Shown here piece by piece: positions 1 through 6,328 of a stretch of DNA of 64,000 bases. A program made the translations under genes and the position numbers. The first letter of the stretch is position 1, and every line of letters starts with the position of its first letter. Below the pieces are notes generated by a model, which saw only the letters and a program-made list of their open reading frames with translations, was not told the origin of the DNA and made no database searches. The stretch lies in the NCBI RefSeq assembly GCF_988243305.1, contig NZ_OZ547136.1; one strand, written 5' to 3'.

Positions 1-188
1 ATTACGGTAAGGACCTGTGGAGTACTTATCAGACCATCCAGGAGAATATGCTGAAAGGCGGGATTTCCGGTCGCAGTGCAAAAGGAAAACGTATCCACAC
101 CCGTGCCATTCACAGCATCGACACCGATATTAAGCTCAACCGCGCATTGTGGGTAATGGCAGAAACGCTGCTGGAGAGCCTGCGCTGA
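1..188 (+). CDS. C-terminal fragment of an island protein (possibly DUF932 family); 5' end lies outside the window
   Basis: Open frame from window edge to TGA at 186-188; stop overlaps the ATG of the next ORF; position upstream of antirestriction gene as in CP4-type islands. Family assignment is from memory, not verified. Confidence 0.45.
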   Translation, partial: YGKDLWSTYQTIQENMLKGGISGRSAKGKRIHTRAIHSIDTDIKLNRALWVMAETLLESLR

Positions 189-433
189 TGCAGCATGTCC
201 CTGAAGGCGTGATTCAGGCACCAGAATCACCCGACGCCCCGGAGGCGCTGCCGGGGTGTCGTTCCATTTCTGATGATGACCTGTGCGCCTGGTGTACCCG
301 TCTGCTTTACCGTCCCGGAGAAATCAGTCTGTGCAGACTGAGTACAGGCAATGGCATCTGGCCATCCGTCTGTGACCGGAACGGTTACGCGTACGGCTGT
401 CCGGAATTTCAGCCGAATATCATTCATCCCTGA
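188..433 (+). CDS. Small cysteine-rich hypothetical protein (81 aa), possibly DUF905/YkfF-like
   Basis: ATG at 188 overlaps upstream stop (TGATG), suggesting translational coupling; 7 Cys in 81 aa; sits between DUF932-like and antirestriction genes. Confidence 0.45.
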   Translation: MQHVPEGVIQAPESPDAPEALPGCRSISDDDLCAWCTRLLYRPGEISLCRLSTGNGIWPSVCDRNGYAYGCPEFQPNIIHP

Positions 434-526
434 TATTACCGGGTCTCACGGTCAGTGATGAACGTGATGTTGCCAGCTCCCGACCTTTACTCCCTCTCAT
501 TTATTCACATTACAAGGATTTCATAC

Positions 527-1000
527 ATGAAAACATTGTCTCAGAACACCACCTCTTCGGCCTGTGCACCGGAGACTGGCCTGCAACAACTGGTTGCCAC
601 CATAGTCCCTGATGAACAGCGCATCAGCTTCTGGCCGCAGCATTTTGGCCTCATTCCACAGTGGGTGACCCTGGAGCCCCGTGTCTTCGGCTGGATGGAC
701 CGTCTGTGCGAAAACTACTGCGGTGGTATCTGGAATCTGTACACCCTGAACAACGGCGGGGCATTTATGGCCCCTGAACCGGATGACTATGATGACGAAA
801 CATGGGTACTGTTCAATGCCATGAACGGTAACCGCGCTGAAATGAGCCCGGAAGCCGCCGGCATTGCCGCCTGTCTGATGACGTACAGTCATCACGCCTG
901 CCGTACGGAGTGTTATGCCATGACGGTTCATTATTACCGTCTGCGGGATTACGCCCTGCAGCATCCGGAATGCAGCGCCATTATGCGCATTATTGACTGA
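527..1000 (+). CDS. Antirestriction protein, KlcA/ArdB family (YfjX/YafX-like)
   Basis: Translation MKTLSQNTTSSACAPETGLQQLVATIVPDEQRISFWPQHFG... matches my recollection of the K-12 prophage antirestriction paralogs; AAGGA RBS 9 nt upstream of ATG 527. Confidence 0.85.
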   Translation: MKTLSQNTTSSACAPETGLQQLVATIVPDEQRISFWPQHFGLIPQWVTLEPRVFGWMDRLCENYCGGIWNLYTLNNGGAFMAPEPDDYDDETWVLFNAMNGNRAEMSPEAAGIAACLMTYSHHACRTECYAMTVHYYRLRDYALQHPECSAIMRIID

Positions 1001-1015
1001 AAGGGGGCAGGAACA

Positions 1016-1492
1016 ATGCAACAGCTTTCCTTTCTGCCCGGAGAGATGACGCCCGGCGAGCGCAGTCTCATTCTGCGGGCCCTGAAAACCCTGGACCGCC
1101 ATCTTCATGAACCCGGCGTGGCCTTCACCTCCACCCGTGCGGCACGGGAATGGCTGATTCTGAACATGGCGGGACTGGAGCGTGAAGAGTTCCGGGTGCT
1201 GTATCTGAATAACCAGAATCAGCTGATTGCCGGTGAAACCCTCTTCACCGGCACCATCAACCGCACGGAAGTCCATCCCCGGGAAGTGATTAAACGCGCC
1301 CTGTATCACAATGCCGCAGCCGTGGTGCTGGCACACAATCACCCGTCCGGTGAAGTCACCCCCAGTAAGGCAGACCGCCTTATCACGGAACGTCTGGTAC
1401 AGGCACTGGGCCTGGTGGATATCCGGGTGCCGGACCATCTGATAGTCGGTGGCAGCCAGGTTTTCTCCTTTGCCGAACATGGTCTGCTTTAA
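1016..1492 (+). CDS. RadC-like JAB/MPN domain protein (YeeS/YkfG/YfjY family)
   Basis: 158-aa ORF with intact JAMM-type motif HNHPSGEVTPSKAD; conserved position after antirestriction gene. Confidence 0.9.
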   Translation: MQQLSFLPGEMTPGERSLILRALKTLDRHLHEPGVAFTSTRAAREWLILNMAGLEREEFRVLYLNNQNQLIAGETLFTGTINRTEVHPREVIKRALYHNAAAVVLAHNHPSGEVTPSKADRLITERLVQALGLVDIRVPDHLIVGGSQVFSFAEHGLL

Positions 1493-1554
1493 CCCGCCAC
1501 AACCACATCACACCTGTTTTCACTTTTATCTTCTGTCTTCAGAGGTATCCCATT

Positions 1555-1776
1555 ATGAAAATCATCACCCGTGGTGAAGCCATGCGTATTCACCAACAGC
1601 ATCCTGCATCCCGTCTTTTTCCGTTCTGTACCGGCAAATACCGCTGGCACGGCAGCACTGAAACGTATACCGGTCGTGAAGTGCAGGATATTCCCGGTGT
1701 GCTGGCCGTGTTTGCTGAACGCCGTAAGGACAGTTTTGGCCCGTATGTCCGGCTGATGAGCGTCACTCTGAACTGA
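1555..1776 (+). CDS. DUF987 protein (YeeT/YkfH/YpjJ-like)
   Basis: 73-aa translation MKIITRGEAMRIHQQHP...YVRLMSVTLN is near-identical to K-12 YeeT as I recall it. Confidence 0.85.
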   Translation: MKIITRGEAMRIHQQHPASRLFPFCTGKYRWHGSTETYTGREVQDIPGVLAVFAERRKDSFGPYVRLMSVTLN

Positions 1777-1794
1777 GTCAGTAAGGGCATTCTG

Positions 1795-2439
1795 ATGAGC
1801 AGAATTATCACCACCACCGTGTATACACTGCATGAGCTATCCTCCACCGCACAGGAAAAAGCCCGCGACTGGTACCGTCAGCATCATGCTGACAGCAACT
1901 GGTATGAAAACGTGTATGAGGACTTCAGGGAGGTCTGTGGCATTTTCGGAATTGACCTCCGCCAGCGCGTTTTCCGGCTCAGCAACGGCAGGTTTATGGA
2001 AGAGCCGTGCATCTGGTTCAGCGGATTCTGCAGTCAGGGGGACGGAGCCTGTTTTGAAGGGCGCTGGCACTGGCAGCCAGCGACACCCCGGAAAATCAGG
2101 GAATATGCCCCTCAGGACCGTGAGCTTCATCGTATCGCGGATGCCCTGCAGGCGGTACAGAAGCGTAACTTCTGGCAGTTACAGGCTGAAATCAGTCACC
2201 GGGGACGTTACTGCCATCCGTACAGCATGGATATCACCGTCACCCGGAACAGTCCGACTGGTCAGGCACTGACAGCCGATGCGGAAGCCGCTGTCAGCGA
2301 AGCCCTGCGCGACCTGGCCTTCTGGCTGTACCGCCAGCTGGAAAACGAGTACGACTGGCTGACCTCAGACGCCGCTGTAGATGAGGCCATTCACATCAAT
2401 GCATATACCTTCACCGAAGCCGGTCTCCACGCCGGCTGA
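1795..2439 (+). CDS. Hypothetical protein (214 aa), unknown function, inserted between DUF987 gene and cbeA
   Basis: Uninterrupted 645-nt ORF; ATG preceded by AAGGG; Trp/Cys-rich; no family recognised. The K-12 yeeT-cbeA type modules have no gene here. Confidence 0.55.
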   Translation: MSRIITTTVYTLHELSSTAQEKARDWYRQHHADSNWYENVYEDFREVCGIFGIDLRQRVFRLSNGRFMEEPCIWFSGFCSQGDGACFEGRWHWQPATPRKIREYAPQDRELHRIADALQAVQKRNFWQLQAEISHRGRYCHPYSMDITVTRNSPTGQALTADAEAAVSEALRDLAFWLYRQLENEYDWLTSDAAVDEAIHINAYTFTEAGLHAG

Positions 2440-2488
2440 CCTGTCATCGTTAAACTATCATTCACCAATTTTTTGTGAGGATTTGATC

Positions 2489-2866
2489 GTGTCAGACACA
2501 CTCCCCGGGACAACACTTCCCGACGACAATCACGACCGCCCCTGGTGGGGGCTGCCCTGCACCGTGACGCCCTGTTTCGGGGCACGTCTGGTGCAGGAGG
2601 GTAACCGGTTGCATTACCTTGCAGACCGCACCGGTATCAGAGGCCGGTTCAGCAATGCGGATGCATACCATCTGGACCAGGCTTTTCCACTGCTGATGAA
2701 ACAACTGGAACTCATGCTCACCAGCGGTGAACTGAATCCCCGCCATCAGCATACCGTCACGCTGTATGCGAAAGGGCTGACCTGCGAAGCTGATACCCTT
2801 GGCAGTTGTGGTTACGTTTATCTGGCTGTTTATCCGACACCGGCAGCACCCGCAATCACCGTATAA
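2489..2866 (+). CDS. cbeA: Type IV TA antitoxin CbeA (YeeU) homolog
   Basis: GTG start with GTGAGGA RBS; translation VSDTLPGTTLPDDNHDRPWWGLPCTVTPCFGARLVQEGNRLHYLADR... matches K-12 CbeA. Confidence 0.9.
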   Translation: MSDTLPGTTLPDDNHDRPWWGLPCTVTPCFGARLVQEGNRLHYLADRTGIRGRFSNADAYHLDQAFPLLMKQLELMLTSGELNPRHQHTVTLYAKGLTCEADTLGSCGYVYLAVYPTPAAPAITV

Positions 2867-2912
2867 CCCCGGATATCTCCCCTTTATCACCACCTGTTAC
2901 AGAGAACTTAAG

Positions 2913-3287
2913 ATGAATACATTACCCGACACTCACGTACGGGAGGCATCGGGCTGCCCGTCTCCCGTCACCATCTGGCAGACACTGCTCACCCGACTGC
3001 TGGACCAGCACTACGGCCTCACGCTGAATGACACACCGTTCGCTGATGAACGTGTGATTGAGCAGCATATTGAGGCAGGTATTTCACTGTGTGATGCGGT
3101 GAACTTTCTCGTGGAAAAATACGCGCTGGTGCGTACCGACCAGCCGGGATTCAGCGCCTGTACCCGCTCTCAGTTAATAAACAGCATCGATATCCTCCGG
3201 GCTCGCAGGGCGACCGGCCTGATGACCCGCGACAATTACAGAACGGTAAATAACATAACCCTGGGTAAGCATCCGGAGGCGAAATGA
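2913..3287 (+). CDS. cbtA: Type IV TA toxin CbtA (YeeV) homolog, cytoskeleton-targeting
   Basis: 124-aa translation; C-terminal ~100 aa (LLDQHYGLTLNDTPFADERVIEQHIEAGISLCDAVNFLVEKYALVR...) matches K-12 CbtA; N-terminus divergent. Confidence 0.9.
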   Translation: MNTLPDTHVREASGCPSPVTIWQTLLTRLLDQHYGLTLNDTPFADERVIEQHIEAGISLCDAVNFLVEKYALVRTDQPGFSACTRSQLINSIDILRARRATGLMTRDNYRTVNNITLGKHPEAK

Positions 3288-3775
3288 TGAAACTGGCCCT
3301 GACGCTGGAAGCCGACAGCGTTAACGTACAGGCACTGAACATGGGGCGCATTGTCGTTGACGTCGATGGTATTGAGCTTGCTGAACTGATTAACGTGGTC
3401 TGCGATAACGGTCACTCCCTTCGTGTTGTTGATGAATCTGACCGAGCCTCAACAGACTGCACGCCACCATTTGCTGCCCTGACCGGCATACGCTGCAGTA
3501 CCGCGCATATCACGGCAAAAGACAACGCCTGGCTGTACTCGCTGTCGCATCAGACGAATGACACCGGCGAATCAGAATGGATTCATTTTACAGGCAGCGG
3601 ATATCTGTTACGTACCGATGCGTGGTCATACCCGGTTCTGCGGCTTAAACGCCTGGGCCTGTCAAAAACGTTCCGCCGCCTGGTTGTCACACTCATCCGA
3701 CGTTATGGCGTCAGTCTCATTCATCTGGATGCCAGCGCTGAATGCCTGCCGGGTTTACCCACTTTCGACTGGTAA
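3284..3775 (+). CDS. DUF5983 protein (YeeW-like), overlaps cbtA stop
   Basis: ATG at 3284 overlaps cbtA stop (ATGATGA); 163-aa ORF in the conserved position after cbtA. Confidence 0.75.
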   Translation: MMKLALTLEADSVNVQALNMGRIVVDVDGIELAELINVVCDNGHSLRVVDESDRASTDCTPPFAALTGIRCSTAHITAKDNAWLYSLSHQTNDTGESEWIHFTGSGYLLRTDAWSYPVLRLKRLGLSKTFRRLVVTLIRRYGVSLIHLDASAECLPGLPTFDW

Positions 3776-3777
3776 CC

Positions 3778-3984
3778 ATGAACAACATGAAATCATTAAC
3801 CACGGAAACCGCACTGGATATTCTGATTGCGTGGCTGCAGGACAATATCGACTGCGAATCGGGAATTATCTTTGACAACGATGAGGATAAAACAGATTCG
3901 GCAGCACTGTTGCCCTGTATCGAACAGGCCAGGGAGGGTATCCGTACCCTGTGCCAACTGCAGCTTCTGCACCAGAACCGATGA
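3778..3984 (+). CDS. Small acidic hypothetical protein (68 aa), possibly DUF957-like
   Basis: ATG 2 nt after the previous stop; acidic DNDEDK stretch; family assignment from memory only. Confidence 0.5.
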   Translation: MNNMKSLTTETALDILIAWLQDNIDCESGIIFDNDEDKTDSAALLPCIEQAREGIRTLCQLQLLHQNR

Positions 3985-4073
3985 GTCTTACTCATTCACT
4001 CACCAGACTTCATTCCAATGACGTCAGCCTGAACAGGGCTGGCGTTTTCGTTTATAAACCAAAAGGAAAAACG

Positions 4074-4919
4074 ATGATGTCAGATATCACAATCTCCCGC
4101 CTGGAAGTGGTCAACGGACATACGGACATTATCTGCTCCACCTCAGTCAGCCACATTCTGGCTGTGCGAAAGACTACACTGCTGCAAATCGACACACTTA
4201 TCCGGCAACTGACTGAAATATCAGCAATGACAGAAAGTATTGGCGGTAAAACCGCACTGGACTGGGCCATGAAACAGGATTTTCGCTGCGGCTGCTGGCT
4301 CATGGATAAACCTGATACAGCAATGAAAGCTATCACCCGCAATCTCGATCGCGAAATCTGGCGTGACCTGATGCAATGCTCCGGGATGCTTTCCTTAATG
4401 GATGCACAGGCCCGTGATACATGGTACCGATCACTGGAGTACGATAATTTTCCGGAAATCAGTGAAGAGAATATTCTGAGTACGTTTGAGCAGCTACACC
4501 AGAATAAGGATGAAGTGTTTGAGCGAGGAGTGATCAACCTCTTCAGAGGGTTGAGCTGGAATTACAAAACCAATTGCCCCTGTAAATTTGGCAATAAAAT
4601 TATCGTCAACAATCTGGTGAGGTGGGACCGGTGGGGATTGCATCTTATCACCGGGCAACAGGCAGATAGACTTGCCGACCTGGAAAGAATGCTGCATCTG
4701 TTCAGCGGCAAACCGATCCCCGACAACAGGGAAAACATAACTATTCATCTGGACGAACATATCCGGTCTCTTCAGGGAAAAGAATGCTATGAAGATGAGA
4801 TGTTCATTATTAAATACTTTAAGAAGGGCTCTGCGCACATCACGTTCAGGAAGCCAGAACTGGTTGACAGACTGAATGATATTATCGCAAAACACTATCC
4901 TGATATGCTGGCAGTATAG
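4074..4919 (+). CDS. Hypothetical protein (281 aa), island cargo next to serX; possibly DUF4942-like
   Basis: AAGGAAAA RBS before ATG 4074; long ORF with lower GC than core; no catalytic motif recognised. Confidence 0.6.
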   Translation: MMSDITISRLEVVNGHTDIICSTSVSHILAVRKTTLLQIDTLIRQLTEISAMTESIGGKTALDWAMKQDFRCGCWLMDKPDTAMKAITRNLDREIWRDLMQCSGMLSLMDAQARDTWYRSLEYDNFPEISEENILSTFEQLHQNKDEVFERGVINLFRGLSWNYKTNCPCKFGNKIIVNNLVRWDRWGLHLITGQQADRLADLERMLHLFSGKPIPDNRENITIHLDEHIRSLQGKECYEDEMFIIKYFKKGSAHITFRKPELVDRLNDIIAKHYPDMLAV

Positions 4920-5026
4920 CTTTGCCAGTATGCTCAAAGATCGGAAATTGTCCGATAAGATATGATCGTGGGGCATATAAACCGGTTTCAGATGGCATAC
5001 CCGGTGGCATACTGTCTGGAAGGATA

Positions 5027-5060
5027 AATAAAAAAGCGCATGTTAAACAATAACATGCGC
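5027..5060 (-). terminator. Rho-independent terminator of serX
   Basis: Perfect 10-bp inverted repeat GCGCATGTTA/TAACATGCGC with 5-nt loop, followed on the minus strand by a T-tract, just downstream of the tRNA 3' end. Confidence 0.7.
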
Positions 5061-5068
5061 TTGTAATC

Positions 5069-5156
5069 TGGCGGTGAGGGGGGGATTCGAACCCCCGATA
5101 CGTTGCCGTATACACACTTTCCAGGCGTGCTCCTTCAGCCACTCGGACACCTCACC
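5069..5156 (-). tRNA. serX: tRNA-Ser (GGA), serX
   Basis: Reverse complement reads GGTGAGGTGTCCGAGTGGCTGAAGGAGCACGCCTGGAAAGTGTGTATACGGCAACGTATCGGGGGTTCGAATCCCCCCCTCACCGCCA: 88 nt, long variable arm, CCA end. Confidence 0.95.
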
Positions 5157-5350
5157 AAATTGTTGTTCCTGTCTTGCTGGAACGGGCGCTAATTTAGGGA
5201 AATCATGACCTGAGGTCAACAAACTTTTTTAAAAAATCGCGCGTTTATTCAAACTTCAATCAATATGCAGTTTTAATAAGCGAAATCTGCTTTTTTTGCC
5301 ACCGACCACGGATTTGTTATGCTGGTGGCTTTTGTAGATCATAACGATAA

Positions 5351-6328
<978 letters not shown>

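Follow-up and report, generated by a model that had tools for sequence, protein, structure and literature searches.

An apparently ancestral DUF8835-family gene of Escherichia coli CP4-like islands as a candidate establishment or anti-defence factor of mobile DNA

The leading or early-entry regions of mobile elements, marked by antirestriction genes, ArdC, SSB, ParB-like proteins or terminal repeats, enter the cell or are expressed first. The gene described here, referred to as gene X, occupies the same genomic niche as the genes for ArdA, ArdB/KlcA, ArdC, PsiB and SSB, but its product has no sequence or fold similarity to ArdA, ArdB/KlcA, ArdC, Ocr, PsiB or SSB. Gene X also lies directly upstream of cbeA, the antitoxin gene of the type IV toxin-antitoxin pair CbtA/CbeA. 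In the K-12 copies of this module the DUF987 gene and the antitoxin gene are separated by spacers of 73 bp in CP4-44 (yeeT-cbeA), 37 bp in CP4-57 (ypjJ-yfjZ) and 18 bp in CP4-6 (ykfH-yafW). These measurements agree with an earlier note on this DNA, made from the sequence alone, which had put the K-12 spacers at well under 100 bp.

The window that we analysed is a 64,000-nt stretch of contig NZ_OZ547136.1 (NCBI RefSeq assembly GCF_988243305.1). The whole stretch matches several E. coli chromosomes of clinical and wastewater origin at 100% identity, and those of UTI89 and NU14 at 99.9%. In these genomes the stretch is an island end beside tRNA-Ser(GGA) and ghrA. The tRNA gene adjoins the island in the window as well, in agreement with the earlier description of a tRNA-linked island, and an Rfam scan of positions 1-6000 identified this tRNA and no further RNA element. 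Gene X is situated between the DUF987 gene and cbeA, as had been described, with gaps of 18 bp to the upstream gene and 49 bp to the GTG of the downstream one (Table 1). Its frame of 214 codons begins with ATG and ends with TGA, and the chance of an open frame of this length is about 3e-5 per start. Together with the substitution pattern given below and the Shine-Dalgarno-like sequence in front of the ATG, these features uphold the previous claims of a clean ORF and a plausible ribosome binding site. Gene X has a G+C content of 57% and a GC3 of 67%, compared with 58% and 66% for the RadC gene and 55% and 65% for cbtA, such that its composition is like that of RadC, cbeA and cbtA.

No promoter-like or terminator-like site was found between genes on the + strand from about 1000 to 4000, which is consistent with a transcript common to gene X and the antirestriction gene. 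From about 300 to 5000, the + strand contains a single terminator-like hairpin that has a T-run; it is at 4020-4046, 3' of the DUF957 gene, suggesting that the antirestriction gene through the DUF957 gene constitute one transcription unit and that the DUF4942 gene is separate. The ORF list also contained a 161-aa frame (2381-2866) that stretches cbeA upstream into the 3' end of gene X; we consider this extension to be an ORF-caller artefact because the RefSeq start of cbeA is the GTG at 2489.

Table 1. Positions of gene X, its sequence elements and its neighbours within the window
Feature	Position	Strand	Basis
Antirestriction protein gene, PF03230 type, ArdB/KlcA-like	527-1000	+	PHROG 10132 'anti-restriction protein', E 6e-63; RefSeq
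RadC/JAB-domain protein gene	1016-1492	+	NCBIfam TIGR00608, 149.5 bits (cut-off 133.85); RefSeq
DUF987 protein gene, YeeT-like	1555-1776	+	RefSeq; 95.5% nucleotide identity to K-12 yeeT
Shine-Dalgarno-like AAGGG	1783-1787	+	7 nt 5' of gene X ATG; read from sequence
Gene X, 214 aa, DUF8835 / PHROG 5162 family	1795-2439	+	ORF, PHROG, RefSeq, AF2, dN/dS
Signature loop S-G-F-x-S-Q-G-D-G-A, codons 76-85 of gene X	2020-2049	+	Alignments A1 and A2
cbeA, YeeU-family type IV antitoxin gene, GTG start	2489-2866	+	RefSeq; 94.9% nucleotide identity to K-12 cbeA
CbtA-family toxin gene	2913-3287	+	RefSeq annotation
DUF5983 gene	3284-3775	+	RefSeq, identical locus; conserved island end
DUF957 gene	3787-3984	+	RefSeq, identical locus; conserved island end
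DUF4942 gene	4077-4919	+	RefSeq, identical locus; conserved island end
tRNA-Ser(GGA), island boundary	5069-5156	-	ARAGORN; Rfam RF00005

The earlier note had interpreted gene X as a cargo ORF inserted into a conserved module. Alignment of the DUF987-to-cbeA segment revealed that K-12 CP4-44 keeps window bases 1785-1819 at 91% identity. The CP4-44 spacer contains ATGAGCAGAATTATCGCCACTACC, in which the upstream site seen in the window precedes the start codon and first eight codons of gene X, the encoded residues being MSRIIATT in the remnant and MSRIITTT in the window. Immediately after the remnant, CP4-44 joins straight to the sequence just upstream of cbeA. As CP4-44 retains this remnant, K-12 is a deletion derivative that lost about 645 bp. 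Of 5426 complete E. coli genomes, 3494 contained the K-12-type deletion junction when at least 80% coverage of a 141-nt probe was required, and strain JNE170426 (L110) contains an independent second deletion in which the first 82 nt of gene X were kept. On the basis of the CP4-44 remnant and the neighbour-like composition, the insertion hypothesis was rejected. Gene X appears instead to be an original part of the CP4-like module that was deleted in K-12 CP4-44. As K-12 is the usual reference and represents the derived, deleted form, gene X looks like an insert when it is compared with that strain.

A separate observation concerns the CP4-44 remnant, in which the original ribosome binding site is still followed by an open frame of 16 codons, MSRIIATTGPFLADFL (K-12 MG1655 2077051-2077101). 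The frame, which is unannotated in K-12, stops 10 nt short of the cbeA GTG.

Among the 5426 complete E. coli genomes, 2000 contained gene X DNA, at 2882 places in total and in as many as 8 copies in one genome. The corresponding search for cbtA gave 13161 places, spread over 4911 E. coli genomes. From the two numbers of places, about one module in five (~22%) carries gene X. The earlier note had stated that its proposal would fail if the ORF were common to most CP4-like modules, and in spirit this is the case, the gene being common in its apparent ancestry but not in its present distribution. Gene X is not rare and, contrary to the earlier suggestion, is not undescribed as an entity, the identical protein having the name DUF8835 in RefSeq.

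The dN/dS ratio of gene X was 0.16-0.30 among intact E. coli alleles and about 0.2 relative to the Salmonella homologue, similar to the value of 0.20 for cbtA. Gene X is thus a real gene under purifying selection. These values bear on the idea that gene X in this E. coli island is a functionless, decaying relic that is kept by linkage alone. CP4-like islands are largely defective elements, gene X has often been lost through the K-12-type deletion and the independent one in JNE170426, and frameshifted or partial alleles also occur. However, the exact 214-aa protein is encoded on at least 1000 contigs, there are large clusters of intact 214-aa alleles, and the window copy has kept every residue that is invariant in the family. 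Taking these results together with the substitution ratios, we regard a relic as very unlikely.

The product of gene X is identical to RefSeq WP_000086759.1, the product name of which is 'DUF8835 domain-containing'; the newest RefSeq product string is displayed as 'DUF8835 domain-containing pootine'. Residues 2-210 matched positions 2-195 of the 201-position profile of PHROG 5162, a family of unknown function, with an E value of 7.2e-37. Neither the protein nor 80 aligned homologues had a match in Pfam-A (E<=10). The Pfam-A set that was searched did not contain a DUF8835 model, so membership in DUF8835 was taken from the name that RefSeq gives to the identical protein. NCBIfam also contained no match to the protein. 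Hence, the earlier statement that the ORF has no recognisable family held for Pfam-A, NCBIfam and PADLOC, but not for PHROG 5162, which matches end to end, or for RefSeq.

An exhaustive phmmer search (E<=1e-3) yielded a family of 3611 clusters at 50% identity, nearly all of which consist of stand-alone proteins of 200-225 aa. Alphaproteobacterial homologues are uniformly 59-63% identical to the E. coli protein over all 214 residues, and Salmonella and Klebsiella homologues, which adjoin CbeA in a different gene order, are 59-64% identical. Conservation was assessed with an alignment of 80 sequences (A1) and with one that includes five phage members (A2). Bacterial and phage members all share residues L15, G52, S76, G82, D83, A85, Y139, L182 and G210, and G77, F78, Q81, G84, Y179, N202 and F206 are near-invariant. 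The window copy contains the SGFxSQGDGA loop along with Y139, H141, W177, Y179, L182, N202 and F206, each of these signature residues being invariant or at least 90% conserved in A1 and A2. The family has a median pI of 4.74 and a median net charge of -16, compared with a pI of 5.6 and a net charge of -8 for the less acidic window copy.

The literature library that was searched contained no paper on DUF8835, and searches on DUF987/CbtA and the other neighbour families gave nothing about gene X. The phrase 'toxin-antitoxin stability system' occurred only in generic uses, one of which concerned RelB. Both this exact protein and its uncharacterised family already have catalogue entries, and it appears that nobody has studied the family.

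An AF2 model of the protein, built with the 80-sequence alignment, had a pLDDT of 96.4 and a pTM of 0.88. The proposal that the protein contains a folded domain, which had been based in part on segment FSGFCSQGDGACFEGRWHWQ (residues 75-94), is therefore well founded. Foldseek searches of AFDB50 with this model returned family members alone (TM 0.95-0.98), all of which are named 'antitoxin', and the predicted fold is the same as that of other DUF8835/PHROG 5162 members. Sequence searches of the PDB with the single protein and with a profile identified nothing below an E value of 0.8, and no fold relative was recognised among the solved structures in the PDB. From these results, the predicted fold of X has no known relative among solved structures. 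Thus, the structure prediction and homology searches that the earlier note had proposed gave a confident fold and no characterised relative.

In the enterobacterial loci examined, gene X was always found in a DUF932-antirestriction-RadC-DUF987...CbtA-DUF5983-DUF4942 block, where it touches CbeA or CbtA in every case despite differences in gene order. The order is DUF987-X-CbeA-CbtA in the E. coli window and in a second, 64%-identical E. coli lineage (L106), DUF987-CbeA-X-CbtA in Klebsiella michiganensis, and DUF987-CbeA-CbeA-X-CbtA in Salmonella, in which X overlaps CbeA by 4 bp. In the Salmonella (L095, 9287-11084) and Klebsiella (L108, 5610-6996) loci, X splits the toxin-antitoxin pair, being situated between the CbeA gene or genes and CbtA, and the two CbeA genes of Salmonella are in tandem.

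This adjacency raises the possibility that the enterobacterial CbtA/CbeA type IV module has X as its third component, which might serve as another antitoxin or might control the toxin as a regulator or sensor. X and CbeA/YeeU are both small cytoplasmic alpha/beta proteins of one operon, databases call X an 'antitoxin', and in-frame X-CbeA fusion ORFs of 342-343 aa are found in several E. coli lineages. CbeA homologues carry PF06154, and X had no match to this family at E<=10. Moreover, hhalign comparison of X with CbeA gave a probability of 0.4%, and X as a CbeA homologue was consequently rejected. Probabilities were at most 0.4% for X against CbeA, DUF987 and a 138-aa protein encoded next to X in Alphaproteobacteria, as well as for the 138-aa protein against CbeA and DUF987, the CbeA and DUF987 alignments being shallow. 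The database name 'antitoxin' is therefore not backed by homology, and fusion models of X with CbeA, or the adjacency of the two, are the probable origin of its spread.

The fusions result from a TGA-to-TTA change and a 33-bp spacer deletion (e.g. L003, 4001-5032; also L004 and L005). Since the fusion allele keeps the GTG and the GAGGA site of CbeA, both products may be made. Fused models of other module neighbours, namely DUF987+CbeA, CbeA+DUF5983 and Antirestrict+X, are equally common. As chimeric gene models are common in the module, the X-CbeA fusions carry little weight. Deposited models also fuse X with DUF5983 and CbtA with CbeA, and the many fused gene models suggest that internal deletions, or recombination of paralogous copies of the island with each other, are frequent. 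An AF2 model of a natural X-CbeA fusion did not show confident docking (pTM 0.57, with a disordered linker and a pLDDT below 50 for residues 216-274) and so gave no support for a complex of X with CbeA, although the chimeric alignment was unpaired and the model is for that reason a weak test.

The distribution of X also argues against a dedicated role in the toxin-antitoxin module. X is about 90 aa longer than CbeA and has a far wider taxonomic range, with its 3611 clusters compared to 1923 CbeA hits that are mostly from Enterobacterales. The K-12 pairs CbtA/CbeA, YkfI/YafW and YpjF/YfjZ are without X beside them. An antitoxin of this type would be expected always to be paired with a CbtA-family toxin, but the X genes of alphaproteobacterial elements and of phages have neither CbeA nor CbtA nearby. 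Considering the evidence on both sides, we think it unlikely that X is an accessory of the CbtA/CbeA module.

The alphaproteobacterial contexts were examined in 80 loci. Genes near X encode the 138-aa protein in 70 of these loci, a ParB-like 711-aa protein in 57, an AAA_34/ResIII helicase in 57, DUF7146/Toprim in 48, ArdC in 40 and YAcAr in 39. In the one Pfam-labelled locus, which is from Pleomorphomonas, the order is ArdC, DUF2958, the 711-aa protein, the 138-aa protein, X, a 1449-aa protein, DUF7146/Toprim and YAcAr, and SSB is encoded a few kb farther on. The ArdC protein of this locus consists of ArdcN and MPTase-PolyVal, the 1449-aa protein contains AAA_34/ResIII/Helicase_C_4, and the 711-aa protein clusters with a ParB_N-bearing protein of Tistrella. 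The Tistrella X gene is just upstream of genes for NikA, a relaxase and a T4CP. X homologues were found on 111 plasmids, most of which are alphaproteobacterial.

The 138-aa protein (consensus MADYFTHFSCLLDVGTP...GFGGGAHVLDL) is encoded directly 5' of X in Alphaproteobacteria (L093, 9592-10008), and in that Pfam-labelled locus its gene overlaps X by 8 bp. It had no match in Pfam, PHROG, NCBIfam or the PDB. The protein is likely to be a functional partner of X.

X homologues were also identified in 59 phage genomes, with hosts that include Caulobacter, Acinetobacter, Pseudomonas, Klebsiella and E. coli. Small genes that have no annotation surround the phage copies, and those of several Caulobacter jumbo phages and of Klebsiella phage fENko-Kae01 are within the terminal repeats. 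A metagenome contig (SRR15425351_96819, L011) contains a 39%-identical homologue in a phage-like series of 18 genes, most of them small and all in one orientation, which also includes genes for DUF2958 and a CCA-adding tRNA nucleotidyltransferase; DUF2958 is encoded near X in alphaproteobacterial conjugative elements too.

These contexts bear on the suggestion that the position of gene X is one at which anti-phage or anti-defence genes accumulate. The place is typical of conflict or establishment genes, and to that extent the suggestion stands. If X were island cargo for anti-phage defence or abortive infection, this would agree with the tRNA-linked location beside a toxin-antitoxin pair and with the presence of AbiE a few genes away in X-bearing Klebsiella islands. 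However, PADLOC returned no match for X or for any of seven neighbouring proteins at E<=0.01, and the position of X is fixed in a conserved backbone operon of matching composition, unlike that of variable cargo. Lytic phages themselves carry X, in some jumbo phages within the terminal repeats, and this favours a function of benefit to the DNA that invades the cell. We therefore consider an anti-phage role to be highly improbable.

In all of the contexts described above, X is found in blocks of mobile DNA that have early-entry functions in characterised elements. This pattern leads us to favour the interpretation that X serves mobile DNA as an early-entry factor for establishment, host takeover or anti-defence, to which we assign a rough probability of 0.45. 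Like establishment genes, gene X in the window is co-oriented with the PF03230-type antirestriction gene, with short gaps and no terminator-like site between them. Alphaproteobacterial X resembles leading-region genes in its location in an ArdC/ParB/helicase/Toprim block, or beside a relaxase in Tistrella, and phage X resembles early-entry genes in its location in terminal repeats and small-gene blocks. CbtA has been placed among the effectors that are deployed by conjugative elements and may delay cell division (Iyer et al. 2017, PMC5512222), which fits an establishment role for the whole block.

According to this establishment or anti-defence model, X, which is apparently an original member of the DUF932-antirestriction-RadC-DUF987-X-CbeA-CbtA block of CP4-like integrative islands, would be made soon after the element DNA enters the cell, along with the antirestriction functions. 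As the X sequence is unusually conserved across distant hosts, the protein probably binds or processes a conserved host protein or a small ligand. The probable site for such an interaction, judging from the alignments, is the invariant loop S76-G-F-x-S-Q81-G-D83-G-A with Y139, H141 and N202.

Several findings count against an establishment role. The DNA-mimic anti-restriction proteins provide a comparison in acidity, and although the X family is usually acidic, the window copy is only mildly so. X is also much more conserved than typical anti-defence proteins, and its dN/dS near 0.2 is unlike that of fast-evolving arms-race inhibitors. The adjacency of enterobacterial X to CbeA/CbtA could indicate a toxin-antitoxin-linked role, and many E. 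coli islands work without X, as seen from the deletion junction and the pseudogene alleles.

A more specific and more tentative proposal, which we would rate as somewhat improbable in its entirety, is that DUF8835 represents a new, structurally unprecedented class of early-entry effector shared by conjugative elements and lytic phages. Such an effector would neutralise a conserved barrier of the host or take over a conserved host machine via the invariant site of SQGDGA, Y139, H141 and N202, and in Enterobacterales it would act alongside CbtA/CbeA, holding the recipient during establishment.

Since the protein and its family were already catalogued, nothing new was discovered in this window. 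The value of the analysis is corrective, in that gene X appears to be ancestral to the module and K-12 is the derived form. DUF8835 is a large, strongly conserved family with a predicted fold that is unrelated to known ones, which makes it a reasonable candidate for establishment or anti-defence screening. A further question that follows from the features of X is why, in enteric bacteria, it accompanies CbeA/CbtA.
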